From: Escherichia phage REP1
Length of the DNA: 64,000 nt
Reading direction: 5' to 3' (one strand)
Sequence record: OQ174500.1
The stretch's first letter is position 1. Each line of letters starts with the position of its first letter. Below the pieces are notes generated by a model that had not been told where the DNA came from, did not search any database, and saw nothing but the letters and a program-made list of their open reading frames with translations. The translations under genes were made by a program, and so were the position numbers. This document shows positions 2,910 through 30,663 of the stretch, one piece after another.

Positions 2910-4723
2910 CAATTGAAAAAGAAATTGAAGGATTGATTCATAAAACTAATAAAGACCTTTTAAACGAGAATGCTAATAAAGATTCTCGTGTTTTTCCAAC
3001 TCAACGGGACCTTATGGCTGGTATTGTGTCTAAACACATTGCCAAAAATATGGTCCCGTCTTTTATTATGAAAGCGCATGAAAGCGGAATTATTCATTTC
3101 CATGATATTGATTATTCCCCTGCTCTTCCATTTACTAATTGCTGTTTAGTAGATTTAAAAGGAATGCTTGAGAATGGATTTAAATTAGGCAATGCTCAAA
3201 TTGAAACGCCTAAATCGATTGGTGTTGCTACTGCAATTATGGCACAAATTACTGCACAAGTTGCTTCCCATCAATACGGCGGAACGACTTTTGCTAATGT
3301 AGATAAAGTACTTTCTCCTTATGTTAAACGCACCTATGCAAAACATATTGAGGATGCAGAAAAATGGCAAATCGCTGATGCGTTGAATTATGCTCAATCC
3401 AAAACAGAAAAAGATGTATACGATGCATTCCAAGCTTATGAATATGAAGTAAATACTCTCTTTAGTTCAAACGGACAAACGCCTTTTGTAACAATTACAT
3501 TTGGTACGGGAACTGACTGGACTGAACGAATGATTCAGAAAGCAATTCTGAAAAATCGTATTAAAGGTCTTGGTCGTGATGGAATAACTCCTATTTTCCC
3601 TAAGCTTGTTATGTTTGTTGAAGAAGGTGTTAATCTTTATAAAGACGATCCGAACTATGATATTAAACAGCTTGCTCTAGAGTGCGCAAGCAAAAGAATG
3701 TATCCTGATATTATTTCAGCTAAGAACAATAAAGCTATCACCGGCTCATCTATTCCTGTTTCTCCAATGGGTTGTCGTAGTTTCTTGAGTGTGTGGAAAG
3801 ATTCGACTGGCAATGAAATTCTTGATGGACGTAATAATCTCGGTGTTGTAACACTGAATCTTCCTCGTATCGCGTTAGATTCTTATATTGGAACACAATT
3901 CAATGAACAGAAATTTGTTGAGCTATTTAATGAACGAATGGATCTGTGTTTTGAAGCATTGATGTGTAGAATTAGTTCCTTAAAAGGAGTTAAAGCGACT
4001 GTTGCTCCTATTCTTTACCAAGAAGGTGCATTCGGGGTTCGTCTTAAACCTGATGACGATATAATTGAGTTATTTAAAAATGGTAGAAGTTCAGTGTCTC
4101 TAGGATACATTGGTATTCACGAATTGAATATTCTTGTCGGTCGTGATATTGGACGAGAAATTTTAACTAAAATGAATGCTCATCTTAAGCAGTGGACTGA
4201 AAGAACCGGATTTGCTTTTAGTTTATATTCGACTCCTGCTGAAAACCTTTGTTATCGCTTCTGTAAACTTGATACAGAAAAATATGGAAGTGTAAAAGAT
4301 GTTACCGATAAAGGCTGGTACACTAACAGTTTCCACGTTTCAGTAGAAGAAAATATTACTCCGTTTGAAAAGATTTCTCGTGAAGCGCCATATCATTTCA
4401 TTGCGACAGGTGGTCACATTTCTTATGTTGAACTTCCTGATATGAAAAATAACTTAAAGGGTCTTGAGGCCGTATGGGATTATGCTGCACAACATTTAGA
4501 TTATTTTGGTGTTAACATGCCAGTAGATAAATGTTTTACATGTGGAAGTACCCATGAAATGACTCCTACTGAAAATGGATTTGTTTGTTCTATTTGTGGA
4601 GAAACTGATCCTAAAAAGATGAACACAATAAGAAGAACATGTGGTTATTTGGGAAATCCGAACGAACGCGGATTTAATCTCGGCAAAAATAAAGAAATCA
4701 TGCATAGGGTTAAGCACCAATGA
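2906..4723 (+). CDS. nrdD: anaerobic ribonucleoside-triphosphate reductase NrdD, uninterrupted
   Basis: 605 aa; C-terminal glycyl-radical motif RTCGYLG and Cys4 zinc ribbon (CFTCGS...CSICGE); continuous ORF. Confidence 0.95.
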   Translation: MTIEKEIEGLIHKTNKDLLNENANKDSRVFPTQRDLMAGIVSKHIAKNMVPSFIMKAHESGIIHFHDIDYSPALPFTNCCLVDLKGMLENGFKLGNAQIETPKSIGVATAIMAQITAQVASHQYGGTTFANVDKVLSPYVKRTYAKHIEDAEKWQIADALNYAQSKTEKDVYDAFQAYEYEVNTLFSSNGQTPFVTITFGTGTDWTERMIQKAILKNRIKGLGRDGITPIFPKLVMFVEEGVNLYKDDPNYDIKQLALECASKRMYPDIISAKNNKAITGSSIPVSPMGCRSFLSVWKDSTGNEILDGRNNLGVVTLNLPRIALDSYIGTQFNEQKFVELFNERMDLCFEALMCRISSLKGVKATVAPILYQEGAFGVRLKPDDDIIELFKNGRSSVSLGYIGIHELNILVGRDIGREILTKMNAHLKQWTERTGFAFSLYSTPAENLCYRFCKLDTEKYGSVKDVTDKGWYTNSFHVSVEENITPFEKISREAPYHFIATGGHISYVELPDMKNNLKGLEAVWDYAAQHLDYFGVNMPVDKCFTCGSTHEMTPTENGFVCSICGETDPKKMNTIRRTCGYLGNPNERGFNLGKNKEIMHRVKHQ

Positions 4724-5190
4724 ATTATGATAGATTTTATCCTTGCGATTTTGTTAATGGTCCTGGCTGCAGGACCGTTCTTTTCGTTACAGGTTGTTTG
4801 CATAAATGCGAAGGGTGTTATAATAAATCAACATGGAATGCTAGAAATGGTGTTCCATTCACTGGTGAAACACTAGAACAATTAATTGAATGTTTGAATA
4901 ATGATTATATAGAAGGATTGACTATAACCGGAGGTGACCCTCTCTATCCTGATAACAGAGACGTGATTCACTCTGTGGTTCAAACTATTAAAAATCTTTA
5001 TCCCAATAAAAGCATTTGGTTGTGGACAGGATATAAGTTTGAAGATATTAAACAACTAGAAATGCTTAAATATGTTGATGTTATTATTGATGGGAAGTAT
5101 GAGAAAAATCTTCCGACTAAAAAGCTGTGGCGAGGATCAGATAATCAGCGACTTTGGTCAAATACCGATGGGGTGTGGAAACATGATTAA
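4720..5190 (+). CDS. nrdG: anaerobic RNR activating enzyme NrdG (radical SAM)
   Basis: 156 aa; CxxxCxxC cluster (CLHKCEGC); ATGA overlap with nrdD stop. Confidence 0.9.
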   Translation: MNYDRFYPCDFVNGPGCRTVLFVTGCLHKCEGCYNKSTWNARNGVPFTGETLEQLIECLNNDYIEGLTITGGDPLYPDNRDVIHSVVQTIKNLYPNKSIWLWTGYKFEDIKQLEMLKYVDVIIDGKYEKNLPTKKLWRGSDNQRLWSNTDGVWKHD

Positions 5191-9532: not shown

Positions 9533-10735
9533 ATGAAAGTATGCATTTTTATGGCTCGAGGTCTTGAAGGTTGTGGCGTAACTAAATTTTCTCTTGAGCA
9601 GCGTGATTGGTTTATTAAAAATGGTCATGAAGTAACTTTGGTTTATGCTAAAGATAAATCATTTACCCGTAATTGCGCGCATGATTATAAATCATTTTCA
9701 ATTCCGGTTTTATTGGCAAAAGAATACGATAAAACACTTAAACTGGTAAATGATTGTGATATTCTAATTATCAATTCAGTTCCTGCTACTTCGGTTGAAG
9801 AAGACACTATTAATAACTATAAAAAAATTATTGATAACATTAAACCTTCTGTTCGTGTTGTAGTTTATCAACATGACCATTCTTCTCTTTCTTTGCGTCG
9901 AAATTTGGGATTAGAAGAAACTGTTCGTCGAGCTGATGTTATTTTTAGCCATTCTGATAATGGTGATTTTAATAAAGTTCTGATGAAAGAATGGTATCCA
10001 GAAACTGTTTCTCTGTTTGATGATATTGAAGAAGCACCGACAGTATATAACTTTCAGCCTCCTATGGATATTGCGAAGGTTCGGTCAACATACTGGAAAG
10101 ATGTTTCTGAAATTAACATGAATATCAACCGTTGGATTGGTCGTACGACTACATGGAAAGGTTTTTATCAGATGTTTGATTTTCATGAAAAACATCTTAA
10201 ACCTGCAGGACTAAGTACTATTATGGAAGGTCTGGAACGTTCTCCAGCGTTCATTCCCATTAAAGAAAAAGGAATTCCATACGAGTATTATCGTCTTCAT
10301 CAAGTAGACCAAATTAAAATTGCTCCTAATTTGCCAACGCAAATTCTTGACCGTTATGTAAATAGCGAAATGCTTGAACGTATGAGTAAATCCGGATTTG
10401 GTTATCAGCTGAGTAAGTTGGACAAAAAATATCTACAACGTTCTTTAGAATATACTCATCTCGAGCTTGGTGCATGTGGAACAATTCCGGTATTTTGGAA
10501 ATCTACTGGCGAAAATTTAAAATTCCGTGTTGATAATACTCCTTTGACCTCGCATGATAGCGGTATCATTTGGTTTGATGAAAATGACATGGAATCAACA
10601 TTTGAACGTATTAAAGAACTGTCATCTGACCGAGCTCTTTATGACCGTGAGCGAGAAAAAGCATATGAATTTTTGTATCAGCATCAAGATTCAAGCTTCT
10701 GCTTTAAAGAACAGTTTGACATTATTACAAAATAA
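9533..10735 (+). CDS. agt: DNA alpha-glucosyltransferase
   Basis: 400 aa, same length as T4 alpha-gt; position between 55 and 47. Confidence 0.85.
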   Translation: MKVCIFMARGLEGCGVTKFSLEQRDWFIKNGHEVTLVYAKDKSFTRNCAHDYKSFSIPVLLAKEYDKTLKLVNDCDILIINSVPATSVEEDTINNYKKIIDNIKPSVRVVVYQHDHSSLSLRRNLGLEETVRRADVIFSHSDNGDFNKVLMKEWYPETVSLFDDIEEAPTVYNFQPPMDIAKVRSTYWKDVSEINMNINRWIGRTTTWKGFYQMFDFHEKHLKPAGLSTIMEGLERSPAFIPIKEKGIPYEYYRLHQVDQIKIAPNLPTQILDRYVNSEMLERMSKSGFGYQLSKLDKKYLQRSLEYTHLELGACGTIPVFWKSTGENLKFRVDNTPLTSHDSGIIWFDENDMESTFERIKELSSDRALYDREREKAYEFLYQHQDSSFCFKEQFDIITK

Positions 10736-18304: not shown

Positions 18305-21001
18305 ATGAAAGAATTTTATATCTCTATCGAAACAGTCGGAAATAACATTGTTGAACGTTATATTGATGAAAATGGAAAGGAACGTACTCGTGAAGTAGAA
18401 TATCTTCCAACTATGTTTAGACACTGTAAGGAAGAATCAAAATACAAAGACATTTACGGTAAAAACTGTGCTCCTCAAAAATTTCCATCAATGAAAGATG
18501 CCCGAGATTGGATGAAACGAATGGAAGACATCGGTCTCGAAGCTCTCGGTATGAACGATTTTAAACTCGCTTATATCAGTGATACATACGGTTCAGAAAT
18601 TGTTTATGACCGAAAATTTGTTCGTGTAGCTAACTGTGACATTGAGGTTACTGGTGATAAATTTCCTGACCCAATGAAAGCTGAATATGAAATTGATGCT
18701 ATCACTCATTACGATTCAATTGATGATCGTTTTTATGTTTTCGACCTTTTGAATTCAATGTATGGTTCAGTATCAAAATGGGATGCAAAGTTAGCTGCTA
18801 AGCTTGACTGTGAAGGTGGTGATGAAGTTCCTCAAGAAATTCTTGACCGAGTAATTTATATGCCATTCGATAATGAGCGTGATATGCTCATGGAATATAT
18901 CAATCTCTGGGAACAGAAACGACCTGCTATTTTTACTGGTTGGAATATTGAGGGGTTTGACGTTCCGTATATCATGAATCGCGTTAAAATGGTTCTCGGT
19001 GAACGTAGTATGAAACGCTTCTCTCCAATCGGTCGAGTAAAATCTAAACTAATTCAAAATATGTACGGTAGCAAAGAAATTTATTCTATTGATGGCGTAT
19101 CTATTCTTGATTATTTAGATTTGTACAAGAAATTCGCTTTTACTAATTTGCCGTCATTCTCTTTGGAATCAGTTGCTCAACATGAAACCAAAAAAGGTAA
19201 ATTACCATACGACGGTCCTATTAATAAACTTCGTGAGACTAATCATCAACGATACATTAGTTATAACATCATTGACGTAGAATCAGTTCAAGCAATTGAT
19301 AAAATTCGCGGGTTTATCGATCTAGTTTTAAGTATGTCTTATTACGCTAAAATGCCTTTTTCCGGTGTAATGAGTCCTATTAAAACTTGGGATGCTATTA
19401 TTTTTAACTCATTGAAAGGTGAACATAAGGTTATTCCTCAACAAGGTTCGCACGTTAAACAGAGTTTTCCGGGTGCATTCGTATTTGAACCTAAACCAAT
19501 TGCTCGTCGATATATTATGAGTTTTGACTTGACGTCTCTGTATCCGAGCATTATTCGTCAGGTTAACATTAGTCCTGAGACTATTCGTGGACAGTTTAAA
19601 GTTCATCCAATTCATGAATATATCGCAGGAACAGCTCCTAAACCGAGTGATGAATATTCTTGTTCTCCGAATGGATGGATGTATGATAAGCATCAAGAAG
19701 GTATCATTCCAAAGGAAATCGCTAAAGTATTTTTCCAGCGTAAAGATTGGAAAAAGAAAATGTTCGCTGAAGAAATGAATGCCGAAGCTATTAAAAAGAT
19801 TATTATGAAAGGCGCAGGGTCCTGTTCAACTAAACCAGAAGTTGAACGATATGTTAAGTTCAGTGATGATTTCTTAAATGAACTATCGAATTATACTGAA
19901 TCTGTTCTCAATAGTCTGATTGAGGAATGTGAAAAAGCGGCTACACTTGCTAATACAAATCAACTGAACCGTAAAATTCTCATTAACAGTCTTTATGGTG
20001 CTCTTGGTAATATTCATTTCCGTTACTATGATTTGCGAAATGCTACTGCTATCACAATTTTCGGCCAAGTTGGTATTCAGTGGATTGCTCGTAAAATTAA
20101 TGAATATCTGAATAAAGTATGCGGAACTAATGGTGAAGATTTCATCGCAGCAGGTGATACTGATTCGGTATATGTTTGTGTAGATAAAGTTATTGAAAAA
20201 GTTGGTCTTGACCGATTCAAAGAGCAGAACGATTTGGTTGAATTCATGAATCAGTTCGGTAAGAAAAAGATGGAACCTATGATTGATGTTGCATATCGTG
20301 AGTTATGTGATTATATGAATAACCGCGAGCATCTGATGCATATGGACCGTGAAGCTATTTCTTGTCCTCCACTTGGTTCAAAGGGCGTTGGCGGATTTTG
20401 GAAAGCGAAAAAGCGTTATGCTCTGAACGTTTATGATATGGAAGATAAGCGTTTTGCTGAACCACATCTAAAAATCATGGGTATGGAAACTCAGCAGAGT
20501 TCAACGCCTAAAGCGGTCCAAGAAGCTCTCGAAGAAAGTATTCGTCGTATTCTTCAGGAAGGTGAAGAGTCTGTCCAAGAATATTACAAAAACTTCGAGA
20601 AAGAATATCGTCAACTTGACTATAAAGTTATTGCTGAAGTAAAAACTGCGAACGATATAGCGAAATATGATGATAAAGGTTGGCCAGGATTTAAATGCCC
20701 GTTCCATATTCGTGGTGTGCTAACTTATCGTCGAGCTGTTAGTGGTCTGGGTGTAGCTCCAATTTTGGATGGAAATAAGGTAATGGTTCTTCCATTGCGT
20801 GAAGGAAATCCATTTGGTGACAAGTGCATTGCTTGGCCGTCGGGCACAGAACTTCCAAAAGAAATTCGTTCTGATGTACTGTCTTGGATTGACTACTCAA
20901 CTTTGTTCCAAAAATCGTTTGTTAAACCGCTTGCGGGTATGTGTGAATCGGCTGGTATGGACTATGAAGAAAAAGCTTCGTTAGACTTCCTGTTTGGCTG
21001 A
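18305..21001 (+). CDS. 43: DNA polymerase gp43 (family B)
   Basis: 898 aa; pol motifs DLTSLYPS and GDTDS; matches T4 gp43. Confidence 0.97.
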   Translation: MKEFYISIETVGNNIVERYIDENGKERTREVEYLPTMFRHCKEESKYKDIYGKNCAPQKFPSMKDARDWMKRMEDIGLEALGMNDFKLAYISDTYGSEIVYDRKFVRVANCDIEVTGDKFPDPMKAEYEIDAITHYDSIDDRFYVFDLLNSMYGSVSKWDAKLAAKLDCEGGDEVPQEILDRVIYMPFDNERDMLMEYINLWEQKRPAIFTGWNIEGFDVPYIMNRVKMVLGERSMKRFSPIGRVKSKLIQNMYGSKEIYSIDGVSILDYLDLYKKFAFTNLPSFSLESVAQHETKKGKLPYDGPINKLRETNHQRYISYNIIDVESVQAIDKIRGFIDLVLSMSYYAKMPFSGVMSPIKTWDAIIFNSLKGEHKVIPQQGSHVKQSFPGAFVFEPKPIARRYIMSFDLTSLYPSIIRQVNISPETIRGQFKVHPIHEYIAGTAPKPSDEYSCSPNGWMYDKHQEGIIPKEIAKVFFQRKDWKKKMFAEEMNAEAIKKIIMKGAGSCSTKPEVERYVKFSDDFLNELSNYTESVLNSLIEECEKAATLANTNQLNRKILINSLYGALGNIHFRYYDLRNATAITIFGQVGIQWIARKINEYLNKVCGTNGEDFIAAGDTDSVYVCVDKVIEKVGLDRFKEQNDLVEFMNQFGKKKMEPMIDVAYRELCDYMNNREHLMHMDREAISCPPLGSKGVGGFWKAKKRYALNVYDMEDKRFAEPHLKIMGMETQQSSTPKAVQEALEESIRRILQEGEESVQEYYKNFEKEYRQLDYKVIAEVKTANDIAKYDDKGWPGFKCPFHIRGVLTYRRAVSGLGVAPILDGNKVMVLPLREGNPFGDKCIAWPSGTELPKEIRSDVLSWIDYSTLFQKSFVKPLAGMCESAGMDYEEKASLDFLFG

Positions 21002-21150: not shown

Positions 21151-21182
21151 AACTATCAGCTAATACGGATTTGGAGAATAAA

Positions 21183-21419
21183 ATGAAAATTGTTTATGGT
21201 TGCTTAGCAGTGTGTTTAGTTGCATTAGCAGCAGTTCCATTTGTTAGTGTTGAAAATGATACTCAACCTGTGATTGAATCTAGCACCGTTATTCACACTA
21301 ATGGTAAAATATCAGTTAAAATTGATGATAATCTTCATGTGAATACAAATGGATCTTTAGGTGTGCAAATGGGTAATACCTGCATAAGCACTACTGGAGT
21401 AATTACTACTTGCATTTGA
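21183..21419 (+). CDS. hypothetical secreted/membrane protein
   Basis: 78 aa from ATG; N-terminal hydrophobic signal-like segment. Confidence 0.5.
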   Translation: MKIVYGCLAVCLVALAAVPFVSVENDTQPVIESSTVIHTNGKISVKIDDNLHVNTNGSLGVQMGNTCISTTGVITTCI

Positions 21420-21817: not shown

Positions 21818-22069
21818 ATGGAAACTTTAGTAGCAGGTTCAATTTTTATGGTTTTAGTTTCAGGCGTGTTGGCTATTATTATATACATGCTTCCATGGTT
21901 TATCGCCTTGATGCGTGGGTCAAAATCGACAGTAGGAATCTTTTTCACATCTTTACTGTTTAACTGGTCAATTATTGGTTGGTTTATTACATTTATTTGG
22001 TCAATTGCGGGTGAAACTAAAAAGTCTGCACAGCCAAATCAGGTAATTATCATCAGAGAGAAGGAATGA
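21818..22069 (+). CDS. imm: Imm-like membrane protein (superinfection immunity), by size and position
   Basis: 83 aa, two hydrophobic helices; just upstream of gene 42. Confidence 0.5.
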   Translation: METLVAGSIFMVLVSGVLAIIIYMLPWFIALMRGSKSTVGIFFTSLLFNWSIIGWFITFIWSIAGETKKSAQPNQVIIIREKE

Positions 22070-22215
22070 AAAGCAAAATTATAACAGTGTTGCTTTTAAT
22101 CTTGATGATTATAATAAGTATATACTATAGTGTAACGGTTCCTCTTATGATTCCAACTATTATTTTAGGTTGGGGTTTATTACTGTTACAAGTTAAATAT
22201 GAATGTATCAATTGA
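22066..22215 (+). CDS. hypothetical small membrane protein
   Basis: 49 aa hydrophobic ORF; ATGA overlap with upstream stop; not in ORF track (<60 aa). Confidence 0.35.
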   Translation: MKSKIITVLLLILMIIISIYYSVTVPLMIPTIILGWGLLLLQVKYECIN

Positions 22216-22222
22216 GGTTTAA

Positions 22223-22963
22223 ATGATTAGTGACTCTATGACAGTTGAAGAAATCCGTCTTCATTTGGGGCTTGCATTAAAAGAAAAAGATTTCGTAGTT
22301 GATAAAACTGGTGTTAAAACTATTGAAATTATTGGCGCATCATTTGTAGCAGATGAACCGTTTATTTTTGGCGCTCTTAATGATGAATACATTCAGCGTG
22401 AACTTGAATGGTATAAATCTAAAAGCTTGTTTGTTAAAGATATTCCAGGTGAAACACCAAAGATTTGGCAGCAGGTAGCATCTTCTAAAGGCGAAATTAA
22501 CTCGAATTATGGTTGGGCTATTTGGTCAGAAGATAACTATGCCCAGTATGATATGTGTTTAGCTGAACTTGGTCAAAATCCTGATTCTCGACGTGGTATC
22601 ATGATTTATACTCGTCCATCCATGCAATTTGATTACAATAAAGATGGTATGTCAGATTTCATGTGTACTAATACAGTACAGTACCTGATTCGTGATAAGA
22701 AAGTCAATGCAGTAGTAAGCATGCGCTCAAATGATGTGGTCTTCGGATTCCGTAATGATTATGCATGGCAAAAATACGTATTAGATAAATTAGTATCTGA
22801 TTTGAATGCCGGCGATTCAACTCGTCAGTATAAAGCAGGTTCTATTATATGGAATGTTGGAAGTCTTCATGTATATTCTCGTCATTTTTACTTGGTTGAT
22901 CATTGGTGGAATACTGGCGAAACTCATATTGTGAAAAAAGATTATAACGGTGAGTGGAAATGA
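22223..22963 (+). CDS. 42: dCMP hydroxymethylase
   Basis: 246 aa; matches T4 gp42. Confidence 0.95.
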   Translation: MISDSMTVEEIRLHLGLALKEKDFVVDKTGVKTIEIIGASFVADEPFIFGALNDEYIQRELEWYKSKSLFVKDIPGETPKIWQQVASSKGEINSNYGWAIWSEDNYAQYDMCLAELGQNPDSRRGIMIYTRPSMQFDYNKDGMSDFMCTNTVQYLIRDKKVNAVVSMRSNDVVFGFRNDYAWQKYVLDKLVSDLNAGDSTRQYKAGSIIWNVGSLHVYSRHFYLVDHWWNTGETHIVKKDYNGEWK

Positions 22964-23802
22964 TTCAATTCGTAATTCCAAGCTATCAACGCGTAGGGGC
23001 AGTTTCTGCCCTTGATATGTTTCCGACTGATTATGAACCACATATTGTAGTGCGTGAACATGAAGAAAAAGCTTATCATGACGCTTATGGGTCTAGAGTT
23101 AAAATTATAACTATTCCTGATGATGTAAACGGAATTGCCGGTACTCGTAAAGCAATTACTGATATGTATGCAGGTCAACGAATCTGGATGATTGACGATG
23201 ATACTACTATTCGTATGAGTTCAATGCGAAAAAGAGATGATCGTCGTTGCGTAGATAAAGTCAATCAATTGACTCGTGAACAGTTCTATGAATTGATTCA
23301 ATATGTTGAGGATGCCATGGATTGTGGGTATTATCATGGCCATGCTCGTCTACCTATTTTTAAAATTACTTCATCTTGGGGTAATTATCGTGAAAATTCA
23401 TATGGATTCACGAATACATGGTATGACCTCGGAAAACTTACGACAGAACAAATTGGGTATGGAAAAATTGATTTATGCGAAGATATGTATGCATTTCTCA
23501 ATTTAATTAATCAAGGTTATCCGCATTTGGCCTTGTTCAAATATCTGGTTGTATCTGGAAAAGCACAAGCTCCTGGCGGGTGCAGTTCAATTCGCAGTAA
23601 TTCTAAACATAATAGAGCGCTTGAGCAGATCAATAGAGAGTTTCCAGAGCAAGCTCGTTGGAAAACTTCTAATATTGAAAAACGAAAATCGTTGGGTGAA
23701 GAAGACGAGCCATTAAAGGTTCTTCGTATGTGTGTTTCACGTAAAGAAAAATCAGAAGCATTTCATAAGTTTAATGCTATTCATCCAATAGCAGTTGATT
23801 AA
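22960..23802 (+). CDS. putative glycosyltransferase with DXD motif (candidate beta-glucosyl-HMC alpha-glucosyltransferase), occupying the beta-gt position
   Basis: 280 aa; MIDDDTTI DXD motif; not similar to T4 beta-gt as I recall it. Confidence 0.5.
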   Translation: MIQFVIPSYQRVGAVSALDMFPTDYEPHIVVREHEEKAYHDAYGSRVKIITIPDDVNGIAGTRKAITDMYAGQRIWMIDDDTTIRMSSMRKRDDRRCVDKVNQLTREQFYELIQYVEDAMDCGYYHGHARLPIFKITSSWGNYRENSYGFTNTWYDLGKLTTEQIGYGKIDLCEDMYAFLNLINQGYPHLALFKYLVVSGKAQAPGGCSSIRSNSKHNRALEQINREFPEQARWKTSNIEKRKSLGEEDEPLKVLRMCVSRKEKSEAFHKFNAIHPIAVD

Positions 23803-23830
23803 TGCCTAAATTTATTGTGTTATAATTACT
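23797..23830 (+). promoter_or_regulatory. middle-promoter-like element upstream of uvsX
   Basis: TGCCTAAA (Mot-box-like), about 12 nt, then TATAAT. Confidence 0.35.
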
Positions 23831-23879
23831 CTATCTTTAACCAGTGAGGAAAATATAATGATGCCTATGGAAAAAATGA

Positions 23880-25061
23880 ATGTCTATTGCAGATTTAAAA
23901 TCCCGTTTGATTAAAGCTTCCACTTCTAAAATGACTGCTGAACTGACTACATCTAAATTCTTTAATGAAAAGGATGTAATCCGTACAAAAATCCCAATGC
24001 TTAATATTGCTATTTCTGGTGCGATTGATGGCGGCATGCAGTCTGGTTTAACTATTTTCGCAGGGCCTTCTAAACACTTTAAATCAAATATGTCTTTGAC
24101 TATGGTTGCGGCATATTTGAACAAATATCCTGACGCGGTTTGTCTATTCTATGATAGTGAATTTGGTATTACTCCAGCTTATTTGCGATCCATGGGAGTT
24201 GACCCGGAACGAGTAATTCATACGCCGATTCAGTCAGTTGAACAGCTGAAAATTGATATGGTGAACCAGCTTGAAGCTATTGAGCGTGGTGAAAAGGTTA
24301 TTGTATTCATCGACTCAATCGGTAATATGGCTTCTAAGAAAGAAACGGAAGATGCCTTAAATGAAAAATCTGTGGCAGATATGACTCGTGCTAAATCACT
24401 GAAGTCATTATTCCGTATTGTTACTCCTTATTTTAGCATTAAAAATATTCCGTGCGTTGCGGTTAACCATACAATTGAAACAATTGAAATGTTTAGTAAA
24501 ACCGTGATGACAGGTGGTACAGGCGTAATGTATTCGGCTGATACAGTATTCATTATCGGTAAGCGTCAGATTAAAGATGGTTCTGATCTTCAGGGGTATC
24601 AATTTGTTCTAAATGTAGAAAAATCTCGTACCGTTAAAGAAAAAAGTAAATTCTTTATTGATGTTAAATTTGACGGTGGTATTGATCCTTATTCTGGATT
24701 GCTAGATATGGCTCTTGAATTAGGATTTGTAGTAAAACCTAAAAATGGTTGGTATGCTCGTGAATTTCTTGACGAAGAAACCGGCGAGATGATTCGCGAA
24801 GAAAAATCTTGGCGTGCAAAAGATACCAACTGCACTACATTCTGGGGTCCTTTATTTAAGCATCAACCATTCCGAGATGCTATTAAACGTGCTTATCAAT
24901 TAGGTGCTATTGATAGTAATGAAATTGTTGAAGCTGAAGTTGATGAATTGATTAACTCAAAGGTTGAAAAATTTAAATCTCCAGAAAGTAAAAGTAAATC
25001 AGCAGCTGATTTAGAAACTGACCTCGAACAGTTAAGTGATATGGAAGAATTTAATGAATAA
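23880..25061 (+). CDS. uvsX: recombinase UvsX (RecA-like)
   Basis: 393 aa; Walker A GPSKHFKS; matches T4 UvsX. Confidence 0.95.
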   Translation: MSIADLKSRLIKASTSKMTAELTTSKFFNEKDVIRTKIPMLNIAISGAIDGGMQSGLTIFAGPSKHFKSNMSLTMVAAYLNKYPDAVCLFYDSEFGITPAYLRSMGVDPERVIHTPIQSVEQLKIDMVNQLEAIERGEKVIVFIDSIGNMASKKETEDALNEKSVADMTRAKSLKSLFRIVTPYFSIKNIPCVAVNHTIETIEMFSKTVMTGGTGVMYSADTVFIIGKRQIKDGSDLQGYQFVLNVEKSRTVKEKSKFFIDVKFDGGIDPYSGLLDMALELGFVVKPKNGWYAREFLDEETGEMIREEKSWRAKDTNCTTFWGPLFKHQPFRDAIKRAYQLGAIDSNEIVEAEVDELINSKVEKFKSPESKSKSAADLETDLEQLSDMEEFNE

Positions 25062-28849: not shown

Positions 28850-29878
28850 ATGTCATCAATACCTTGGATTGATAATGAGTTTGCATACCGTGCATTAGCT
28901 CATCTACCTAAATTCACACAAGTAAATAATAGTTCAACTTTTAAATTACGGTTTAGATGTCCTGTTTGTGGAGATTCAAAAACCGATCAAAATAAAGCCC
29001 GTGGATGGTATTATGGCGATAATAATGAAGGAAATATTCATTGTTATAACTGTAATTATCATGCACCAATCGGAATATATTTAAAGGAGTTTGAACCTGA
29101 TTTATATCGTGAGTATATCTTTGAAATAAGAAAAGAAAAAGGTAAAAGTCGTCCAGTAGAAAAACCTAAAGAACTTCCTAAGCAACCTGAGAAGAAAATA
29201 ATTAAATCTCTTCCGTCATGTGTTAGATTAGATAAACTGGCGGAAGACCATCCAATTATAAAATATGTAAAAGCTCGTTGTATTCCAAAGGATAAATGGA
29301 AATATCTTTGGTTTACAACCGAATGGCCTAAATTAGTTAATAGCATAGCACCGGGAACATACAAAAAGGAAATTTCTGAGCCTCGTCTTGTTATTCCAAT
29401 TTATAATGCTAATGGAAAAGCTGAGTCTTTTCAAGGACGTGCATTAAAGAAAGATGCTCCACAAAAGTATATCACCATCAAAGCTTATCCTGAGGCAACA
29501 AAAATTTACGGTGTTGAACGAGTTAAAGATGGTGATGTATATGTTCTAGAAGGACCCATCGATTCACTTTTTATTGAAAATGGTATAGCCATTACTGGCG
29601 GTCAATTAGACCTAGAAGTTGTTCCATTTAAAGATAGACGAGTGTGGGTTTTAGATAATGAACCTCGTCACCCTGACACTATCAAACGAATGACTAAATT
29701 AGTTGATGCAGGAGAAAGGGTTATGTTTTGGGATAAATCTCCCTGGAAATCAAAAGATGTTAATGATATGATTAGAAAGGAAGGTGCAACCCCTGAACAA
29801 ATTATGGAATATATGAAAAATAATATTGCCCAGGGGTTGATGGCTAAAATGCGGTTATCTAAATATGCTAAGATTTAA
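28850..29878 (+). CDS. 61: DNA primase gp61
   Basis: 342 aa; N-terminal zinc ribbon CPVCGDS...CYNCNYH; matches T4 gp61. Confidence 0.93.
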   Translation: MSSIPWIDNEFAYRALAHLPKFTQVNNSSTFKLRFRCPVCGDSKTDQNKARGWYYGDNNEGNIHCYNCNYHAPIGIYLKEFEPDLYREYIFEIRKEKGKSRPVEKPKELPKQPEKKIIKSLPSCVRLDKLAEDHPIIKYVKARCIPKDKWKYLWFTTEWPKLVNSIAPGTYKKEISEPRLVIPIYNANGKAESFQGRALKKDAPQKYITIKAYPEATKIYGVERVKDGDVYVLEGPIDSLFIENGIAITGGQLDLEVVPFKDRRVWVLDNEPRHPDTIKRMTKLVDAGERVMFWDKSPWKSKDVNDMIRKEGATPEQIMEYMKNNIAQGLMAKMRLSKYAKI

Positions 29879-30075
29879 ATTAACCCAACTAAAGCAAATG
29901 CTAAATCTACAAATGTATCAAGAGTAACCACTGGAATATTAATACCATGTGCAATTGCAATAGGTGATAGAATAAAGTTCCAGAGTAAAATTCCTACCAT
30001 AGCAGAAATAGTAAAAGCTATACGTTTTTTATTACCTTTTATGGCATTAACAAGTGCCATTAATTTTTGTACCAT
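29875..30075 (-). CDS. hypothetical small membrane protein encoded antisense to the early genes
   Basis: 66 aa, two hydrophobic segments; strong SD (AAGGAGGA) 3 nt upstream of ATG on - strand; AATAAATA late-promoter-like box upstream. Confidence 0.4.
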   Translation of the reverse strand: MVQKLMALVNAIKGNKKRIAFTISAMVGILLWNFILSPIAIAHGINIPVVTLDTFVDLAFALVGLI

Positions 30076-30087
30076 ATATCCTCCTTA

Positions 30088-30118
30088 TTGCTTTATATTT
30101 ATTGTATAATTAATCTAC
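30088..30118 (+). promoter_or_regulatory. middle-promoter-like element upstream of gene 56
   Basis: GCTTTA box, then TATAAT about 12 nt downstream. Confidence 0.4.
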
Positions 30119-30144
30119 TAACCCATGAATTGAAAGGAAAAATA

Positions 30145-30663
30145 ATGGCTTACTTTAATGAATGTGCTCATTTGATCGAAGGTGTTGATAAAGCAAATCG
30201 TGCATATGCTGAGAATATTATGCACAATATTGACCCACTGCAGGTTATGCTTGATATGCAGCGGCATTTACAGATTCGTTTGGCTAATGATAAACCAGAA
30301 ACAAATCGTCATCCTGATTCACTTGAAACTGCAGGAGAAGTTCTTGCTTGGTTGCGAAACCAAGACGATTATATCGCAGATGAAACTCGCGAGCTATATA
30401 CTTCTCTTGGTGGTATGAGTAATGGTGAAAAAGAAGCTTCTGCCGTATGGAAACCTTGGAAGAAACGTTATTCTGAAATGCAATCCAAGAAAATTCAAGA
30501 CTTATCTCCTGAAGATCAGCTTGAAATTAAATTTGAACTGATTGACCAATTTCACTTTTTCATGAATAAATTTATTGCTCTTGGAATGTCAGCTGAAGAA
30601 ATCTTTAAACTTTATTACCTGAAAAATGCTGAAAACTTCGCTCGTCAAGACCGAGGTTATTAA
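30145..30663 (+). CDS. 56: dCTP pyrophosphatase gp56 (MazG-like)
   Basis: 172 aa from ATG after GAAAGGAAA RBS (track ORF begins upstream); MAYFNECAHLIEG... consistent with T4 gp56. Confidence 0.8.
   Translation: MAYFNECAHLIEGVDKANRAYAENIMHNIDPLQVMLDMQRHLQIRLANDKPETNRHPDSLETAGEVLAWLRNQDDYIADETRELYTSLGGMSNGEKEASAVWKPWKKRYSEMQSKKIQDLSPEDQLEIKFELIDQFHFFMNKFIALGMSAEEIFKLYYLKNAENFARQDRGY

Follow-up and report, generated by a model that had tools for sequence, protein, structure and literature searches.

The stretch of DNA considered here, referred to below as the window, comprises 64,000 nucleotides of Escherichia phage REP1 (OQ174500.1) and passes through the region of early genes in a T4-like phage, with the local order gp43, imm.1, imm, 42, ba-gt, uvsX, 40, 41. 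From gene 42 to gene 41 the order is the same in the window, T2 and T6. The genes that bear on the glucosylation of its DNA, together with their neighbours, are as follows:

9533..10735, + strand: alpha-gt, an alpha-glucosyltransferase of 400 aa that would make alpha-glucosyl-hmC, the acceptor for ba-gt (PHROG 2888, E 6.8e-223; PF11440 AGT, E 1.8e-237).
18305-21001: DNA polymerase gp43.
22223..22963, + strand: gene 42 (gp42), a dCMP hydroxymethylase that makes the hmC precursor (PHROG 160, E 5e-67; Pfam Thymidylat_synt; gp42 annotated in T2, T4 and T6).
22960..23802 including the stop, + strand: ba-gt (also ggt, or TAGT), a beta-glucosyl-HMC-alpha-glucosyltransferase of 280 aa, assigned from its ORF, identity with T2, PHROG 842, PF20691 and GT-A fold matches.
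23880-25061: uvsX.
30145..30663, + strand: gene 56 (gp56), a dCTPase (tblastn with the Geo 'dCTP pyrophosphatase', 98% identity, 172 aa).

The original prediction had placed between gene 42 and uvsX a 280-aa reading frame bearing the DXD motif MIDDDTTI, and this is borne out by the sequence: W-M-I-D-D-D-T-T-I forms residues 76-84 and the stop codon occupies 23800-23802. The start codon, ATG at 22960, shares bases with the gene 42 stop (TGA, 22961-22963), the two forming an ATGA overlap. An alternative start, GTG at 22954, lies two codons upstream and would give a protein of 282 aa; GTG is annotated in the record of phage Phaginator and ATG in that of T2. The ORF represents a genuine gene rather than a fortuitous reading frame, because it matches PHROG 842 (E 6.9e-89, residues 1-275), has homologues in 688 phage records (tblastn), and differs from the gene of phage Some mostly at synonymous positions (30 synonymous and 2 non-synonymous codon differences).

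Repeats within ba-gt are confined to homopolymers of 5 bases at most and an imperfect GAC-GAT-GAT repeat. Phase variation of the gene is not proposed, given homopolymers of only 5 bases; the preprint on 'contingency loci' deals with agt instead. Codons 12-18 contain a G+C-rich hairpin, GGGGCAG-TTTC-TGCCC (22994-23014; -13.4 kcal/mol, z = -2.6), with a T-rich tract after it; T2, T6 and Phaginator carry the identical hairpin sequence. Promoters and terminators scanned for around ba-gt did not exceed those of shuffled sequence (19 versus 17.6 and 4 versus 2.5, respectively). Two small ORFs were also noted nearby: one for a predicted membrane protein of 82 aa (PHROG 4189) at 21171-21419, between gene 43 and imm.1, an interval represented in T4 by just a 183-bp gap, and a hydrophobic one of 49 aa (PHROG 3610) at 22066-22215, between imm and gene 42, which is annotated in Geo and unannotated in the T2, T4 and T6 records examined.

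The prediction that this protein is the second glucosyltransferase of the T2/T6 type was upheld by homology searching. It is identical at 276 of 280 residues to the T2 beta-glucosyl-HMC-alpha-glucosyl-transferase (BBC14657.1; LC348380), encoded in the same slot, and differs from the T6 protein, again in the same slot, at 4-5 residues. Megablast recovered the gene from 474 phage records at 90-99% nucleotide identity, including all T2 records at 98.2%. Apart from PHROG 842, the only family recognized was Pfam PF20691, 'TET-associated glycosyltransferase' (TAGT), with 41.4 bits against a curated gathering cut-off of 27.5 bits, residues 3-207 aligning with positions 2-205 of the 205-position profile; both are the families of the T2/T6 enzyme itself, and an unrelated enzyme class is not indicated. 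The claimed lack of similarity to the 351-aa beta-glucosyltransferase (beta-gt) of T4 also held, the best BLASTP E value being 2.2, and PF09198, on which T4 beta-gt itself scores 325 bits, was absent among the Pfam hits. The ORF thus almost certainly encodes a T2/T6-type beta-glucosyl-HMC-alpha-glucosyltransferase, a TAGT (PF20691) of GT-A fold that would add a second glucose and give a T6-like pattern of DNA modification.

HMMER, run exhaustively against 1.84 billion representatives, found 340 relatives. Residues conserved in the family were identified in an alignment of the window protein with 142 near-full-length relatives (143 sequences). The conserved positions are:

22990..22992, + strand: codon of Arg11, in an N-terminal I-P-S-Y-x-R motif after strand 1 (Arg in 139/139 non-gap sequences).
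Arg63: 134/143.
23194..23202, + strand: GAC GAT GAT, Asp79-Asp80-Asp81, the DXD metal/UDP-sugar motif (D79 142/143, D80 143/143, D81 135/143).
23479..23484, + strand: Glu174-Asp175, an 'ED' motif (E174 118/143, D175 143/143).
Gly186: 139/143.
Gly206 and Gly207: 141/143 and 143/143.
Arg212: 138/143.

All of these (R11, R63, D79-81, E174-D175, G186, G206-207 and R212), each 83-100% conserved, are kept in the window protein. With an open frame and every family-conserved residue present, the gene as sequenced is intact. A search of the PDB by sequence detected no solved relative; the fold was therefore approached through a structural model, which matched GT-A (GT2-type) glycosyltransferases and related nucleotidyltransferases. 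The model is of moderate confidence, residues 125-151 and 203-211 falling below pLDDT 50, the latter segment holding the conserved GG motif; as modelled, the fold is GT-A. The DDD motif directly follows a modelled strand (residues 74-77), the place at which the metal-binding DXD motif is found in GT-A enzymes. Glu174-Asp175 sits 95 residues downstream of the DDD. An 'ED' motif is a feature of inverting GT2 enzymes, and because Glu174-Asp175 resembles it, Asp175 is taken as the probable catalytic base.

The enzyme would act last in a short pathway. Hydroxymethyl-dCMP would be produced by gp42, while gp56 would remove dCTP and so keep unmodified cytosine out, such that the polymerase would build DNA with hmC replacing C. 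One alpha-linked glucose would then be placed on most hmC residues by alpha-gt; since alpha-gt, gene 42 and gene 56 are all in the window, the alpha-glucosyl-hmC acceptor can be made. With UDP-glucose as donor, ba-gt would attach another glucose to the first through a beta-1,6 linkage, yielding gentiobiosyl-hmC. Formation of a beta linkage from UDP-alpha-glucose would imply an inverting mechanism, in which, by analogy, Asp79-81 may bind the UDP-sugar and a divalent metal, Arg11 may contact the nucleotide, and Asp175 may serve as the base. A search of the 64-kb window with T4 beta-gt (tblastn) did not find a gene of that type. As alpha-gt is present and beta-gt was not found in the window, the glucosylation pattern is predicted to differ from that of T4, as had been proposed.

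How much gentiobiosyl-hmC to expect can be gauged from relatives. The classical values, repeated in PMC11078745, are for T2 DNA approximately 70% alpha-glucosyl, 5% gentiobiosyl and approximately 25% bare hmC, and for T6 DNA approximately 3%, 72% and 25%, respectively. Ten Tequatrovirus isolates of the Durham Collection possess alpha-gt and TAGT without beta-gt, and beta-glucosyl-mdC was found in none (PMC13390438). By HPLC/MS, seven of the ten, including Some and Solly, had approximately 1/3 hmdC and 2/3 alpha-gentiobiosyl-mdC; Geo, EL and BGP gave hmdC, alpha-glucosyl and gentiobiosyl forms at approximately 1:2:2 (PMC13390438). The gentiobiosyl share in close relatives thus reads 5% (T2), approximately 40% (Geo group) and approximately 70% (T6, Some). 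The window protein differs at 2 residues each from those of Some and Solly and at 9 from that of Geo, and the alpha-gt of the window is 92% identical to that of Geo. The Geo group is recognized by its possession of dam between genes 61 and 56 (PMC13390438); the dam methyltransferase gene and its neighbouring 186-aa ORF are absent from this interval in the window (29878-30145), unlike Geo, and the phage is therefore grouped with the dam-less Durham phages having approximately two-thirds gentiobiosyl DNA. Phages with almost the same ba-gt allele have had their DNA measured, and on that basis the DNA of the window phage is predicted to resemble that of T6, Some and Solly: gentiobiosyl-hmC would make up approximately two-thirds, bare hmC most of the remainder, and beta-glucosyl-hmC would be absent. 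The ratio of mono- to di-glucosyl forms may also depend on factors beyond ba-gt, namely alpha-gt, expression levels and timing.

Comparison of alleles pointed to differences among the classical phages themselves. Among eight close ba-gt alleles, His11 occurs in T2 only (codon at LC348380 3037-3039), Arg being present in the window, T6, Some, Solly, Geo and Phaginator. A 57-nt probe for the T2 His11 allele gave exact megablast matches in 8 T2 or T2-derived records and 128 other hits, for which one-mismatch seeding is possible. His11 may account for the low gentiobiosylation of T2 (5% versus 72% in T6). The broader proposal, that ba-gt allelic variation sets the mono/di-glucosyl ratio of the T-even phages, with His11 giving the approximately 5% of T2 and Arg11 alleles such as that of the window giving heavy, T6-like modification, is offered tentatively and would sooner be wrong than right; if true, the window phage would provide a natural wild-type reference for ba-gt allele swaps. 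The two independent genome records of T6 each carry a lesion in ba-gt. In MH550421 a TAG stands at codon 10 (4951-4953, minus strand) and the protein is annotated from Met20, at 261 aa; in NC_054907/AP018814 codon 10 is intact and a 3-bp deletion (GAT-GAT-GAT to GAT-GAT, 1165-1170) reduces DDD to DD. Both are absent from the window gene, and laboratory stocks of T6 may accordingly differ in gentiobiosylation.

These alleles bear on the best surviving alternative, that ba-gt of the window, though present, has lost its activity wholly or in large part, leaving DNA with mainly single alpha-glucose as in T2. That T2 carries the same gene and yet has only approximately 5% gentiobiosyl-hmC, that the T6 records MH550421 and NC_054907 are damaged, and that A47V is private to the window among the alleles compared would all fit; this reading is nonetheless very improbable, as the frame is intact, the family-conserved residues are all present, including the Arg11 lost in T2, differences from relatives are mostly synonymous, and position 47 is unconserved in the family. 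Still less probable is a TAGT-family transferase of other specificity, using a different sugar or acting on bare hmC or beta-glucosyl-hmC. The family is diverse, with homologues found beside alpha-gt, beside beta-gt, or alone, and distinct specificities have been raised (PMC13216743), but the window protein is 99% identical to that of T2 and at most 5 residues from that of T6, the two enzymes by which this activity is defined; phages whose enzyme is 2 residues away have measured alpha-gentiobiosyl-mdC (PMC13390438), and the window has alpha-gt and lacks beta-gt. A divergent T4-type enzyme placing a single beta-glucose on hmC, suggested by the shared position and by records reading 'putative beta-glucosyltransferase', has next to no chance of being correct and is refuted by comparison of sequence and fold, namely the BLASTP and PF09198 results above and a model matching GT-A enzymes and related nucleotidyltransferases rather than the GT-B fold of T4 beta-gt; beta-glucosyl-mdC is also lacking in Durham phages with ba-gt (PMC13390438).

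With ba-gt taken as the second, gentiobiose-forming transferase, the suggestion that it stands 'in place of' beta-gt required revision: the slot is indeed that of T4 beta-gt, but the replacement most likely ran in reverse. The T4 beta-gt gene was found in 29 phage records versus 474 for ba-gt; T4 is the exception, and ba-gt is the majority state and the commonest Tequatrovirus arrangement. Homology between the window and T4 breaks off a few codons short of the gene 42 end and restarts at approximately codon 4 of uvsX; the intervening T4 DNA consists of beta-gt, a short spacer and segA, which encodes a homing endonuclease. The part of ba-gt that persists in T4 is:

23780..23804, + strand: 3' end of ba-gt (last 7 codons, stop and one following base), kept in T4 as a relic at 24/25 nt.

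The T4 relic, TTCATCGAATAGCAGTTGATTAATG, lies directly upstream of the segA start (NC_000866 24262-24238; pairwise E 5e-7). Because T4 keeps this remnant of the ba-gt 3' end, it is most likely that ba-gt formerly occupied this site in the T4 lineage and disappeared with the arrival of beta-gt. Neither segA nor a ba-gt remnant is mentioned in the text of the NAR 2026 paper (PMC13216743). T4 SegA found no counterpart in a tblastn search of the whole window, in which ba-gt and uvsX are separated by 77 bp (23803-23879, compared with T4 locus 3563-4400); UvsX has 393 aa in the window versus 391 aa in T4. The two enzymes were found to be cross-labelled in public records: the T4-identical beta-gt genes of RB55 (KM607002) and RB59 (KM607003) are labelled 'beta-glucosyl-HMC-alpha-glucosyl-transferase', several ba-gt phages read 'putative beta-glucosyltransferase', and the T2 gene is named 'b-gt'. 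MF158045 (Sf22) and MN895437 (teqskov) are further records in this observation.

The significance of the second glucose is that it alters which host defences can read phage DNA; by covering the first sugar, it would hide alpha-glucosyl-hmC from defences that read a single alpha-glucose. T6 DNA, in which gentiobiosyl-hmC predominates, is resistant in vitro to Brig1, a glycosylase of alpha-glucosyl-hmC, while the DNA of a T6 ba-gt deletion mutant is degraded by Brig1 and the mutant phage is more susceptible to it (PMC11078745). Likewise, the deglucosylase BapA was reported to release no glucose from T6 DNA and to release it from DNA of a T6 g-gt deletion mutant. Gentiobiosyl DNA is still cut by GmrSD-family enzymes such as BrxU (PMC13216743; PMC13390438). 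Possession of alpha-gt and an intact ba-gt, with no beta-gt in the window, consequently predicts the defence sensitivity profile of the phage, and the same gene set also predicts the behaviour of its DNA with restriction enzymes and in sequencing.

The gene, its family, fold and distribution are all published, ba-gt being the usual gene at this slot in T4-like coliphages, and the window gene, as one already described in the literature, brings nothing new to biology; the mildly new points are only those on T2, T4 and T6, and none concerns the window gene. T2 and T6 are known to combine alpha-GT with beta-glucosyl-HMC-alpha-GT, the latter equated with the PF20691 TAGT, which adds glucose to an already alpha-glucosylated cytosine to form gentiobiosyl-methylcytosine (NAR 2026; PMC13216743). 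T6 TAGT, as modelled with AlphaFold3, has a GT-A fold and clusters beside GT2, and most phages with such enzymes pair alpha-GT or beta-GT with TAGT, the alpha plus beta pair of T4 being rare (PMC13216743).

Against this background, the T2 gene is like that of the window in length (280 aa), slot and ATGA overlap with gene 42, and differs in having His11, Tyr40, Ala47 and Ser251 where the window has Arg11, His40, Val47 and Pro251. With T6 (YP_010067197.1; AXN58083.1) the window shares both gene and position, the T6 protein differing in Asn40, Gly55 and His106. The TAGT of Some and Solly co-occurs with alpha-gt and without beta-gt, as in the window, although these are separate isolates and do not carry its A47V. 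The name of PF20691 refers to linkage with TET/JBP dioxygenases; in the window, it is gp42 that produces hmC, at the level of the nucleotide, and ba-gt would act on a sugar already attached to the base. T4 beta-gt uses the same donor as ba-gt, UDP-glucose. It also shares with the window enzyme its genomic position and beta linkage (NP_049658.1, PF09198), but it is unrelated in sequence, has a GT-B fold (PMC13216743), and acts on bare hmC, not on alpha-glucosyl-hmC.
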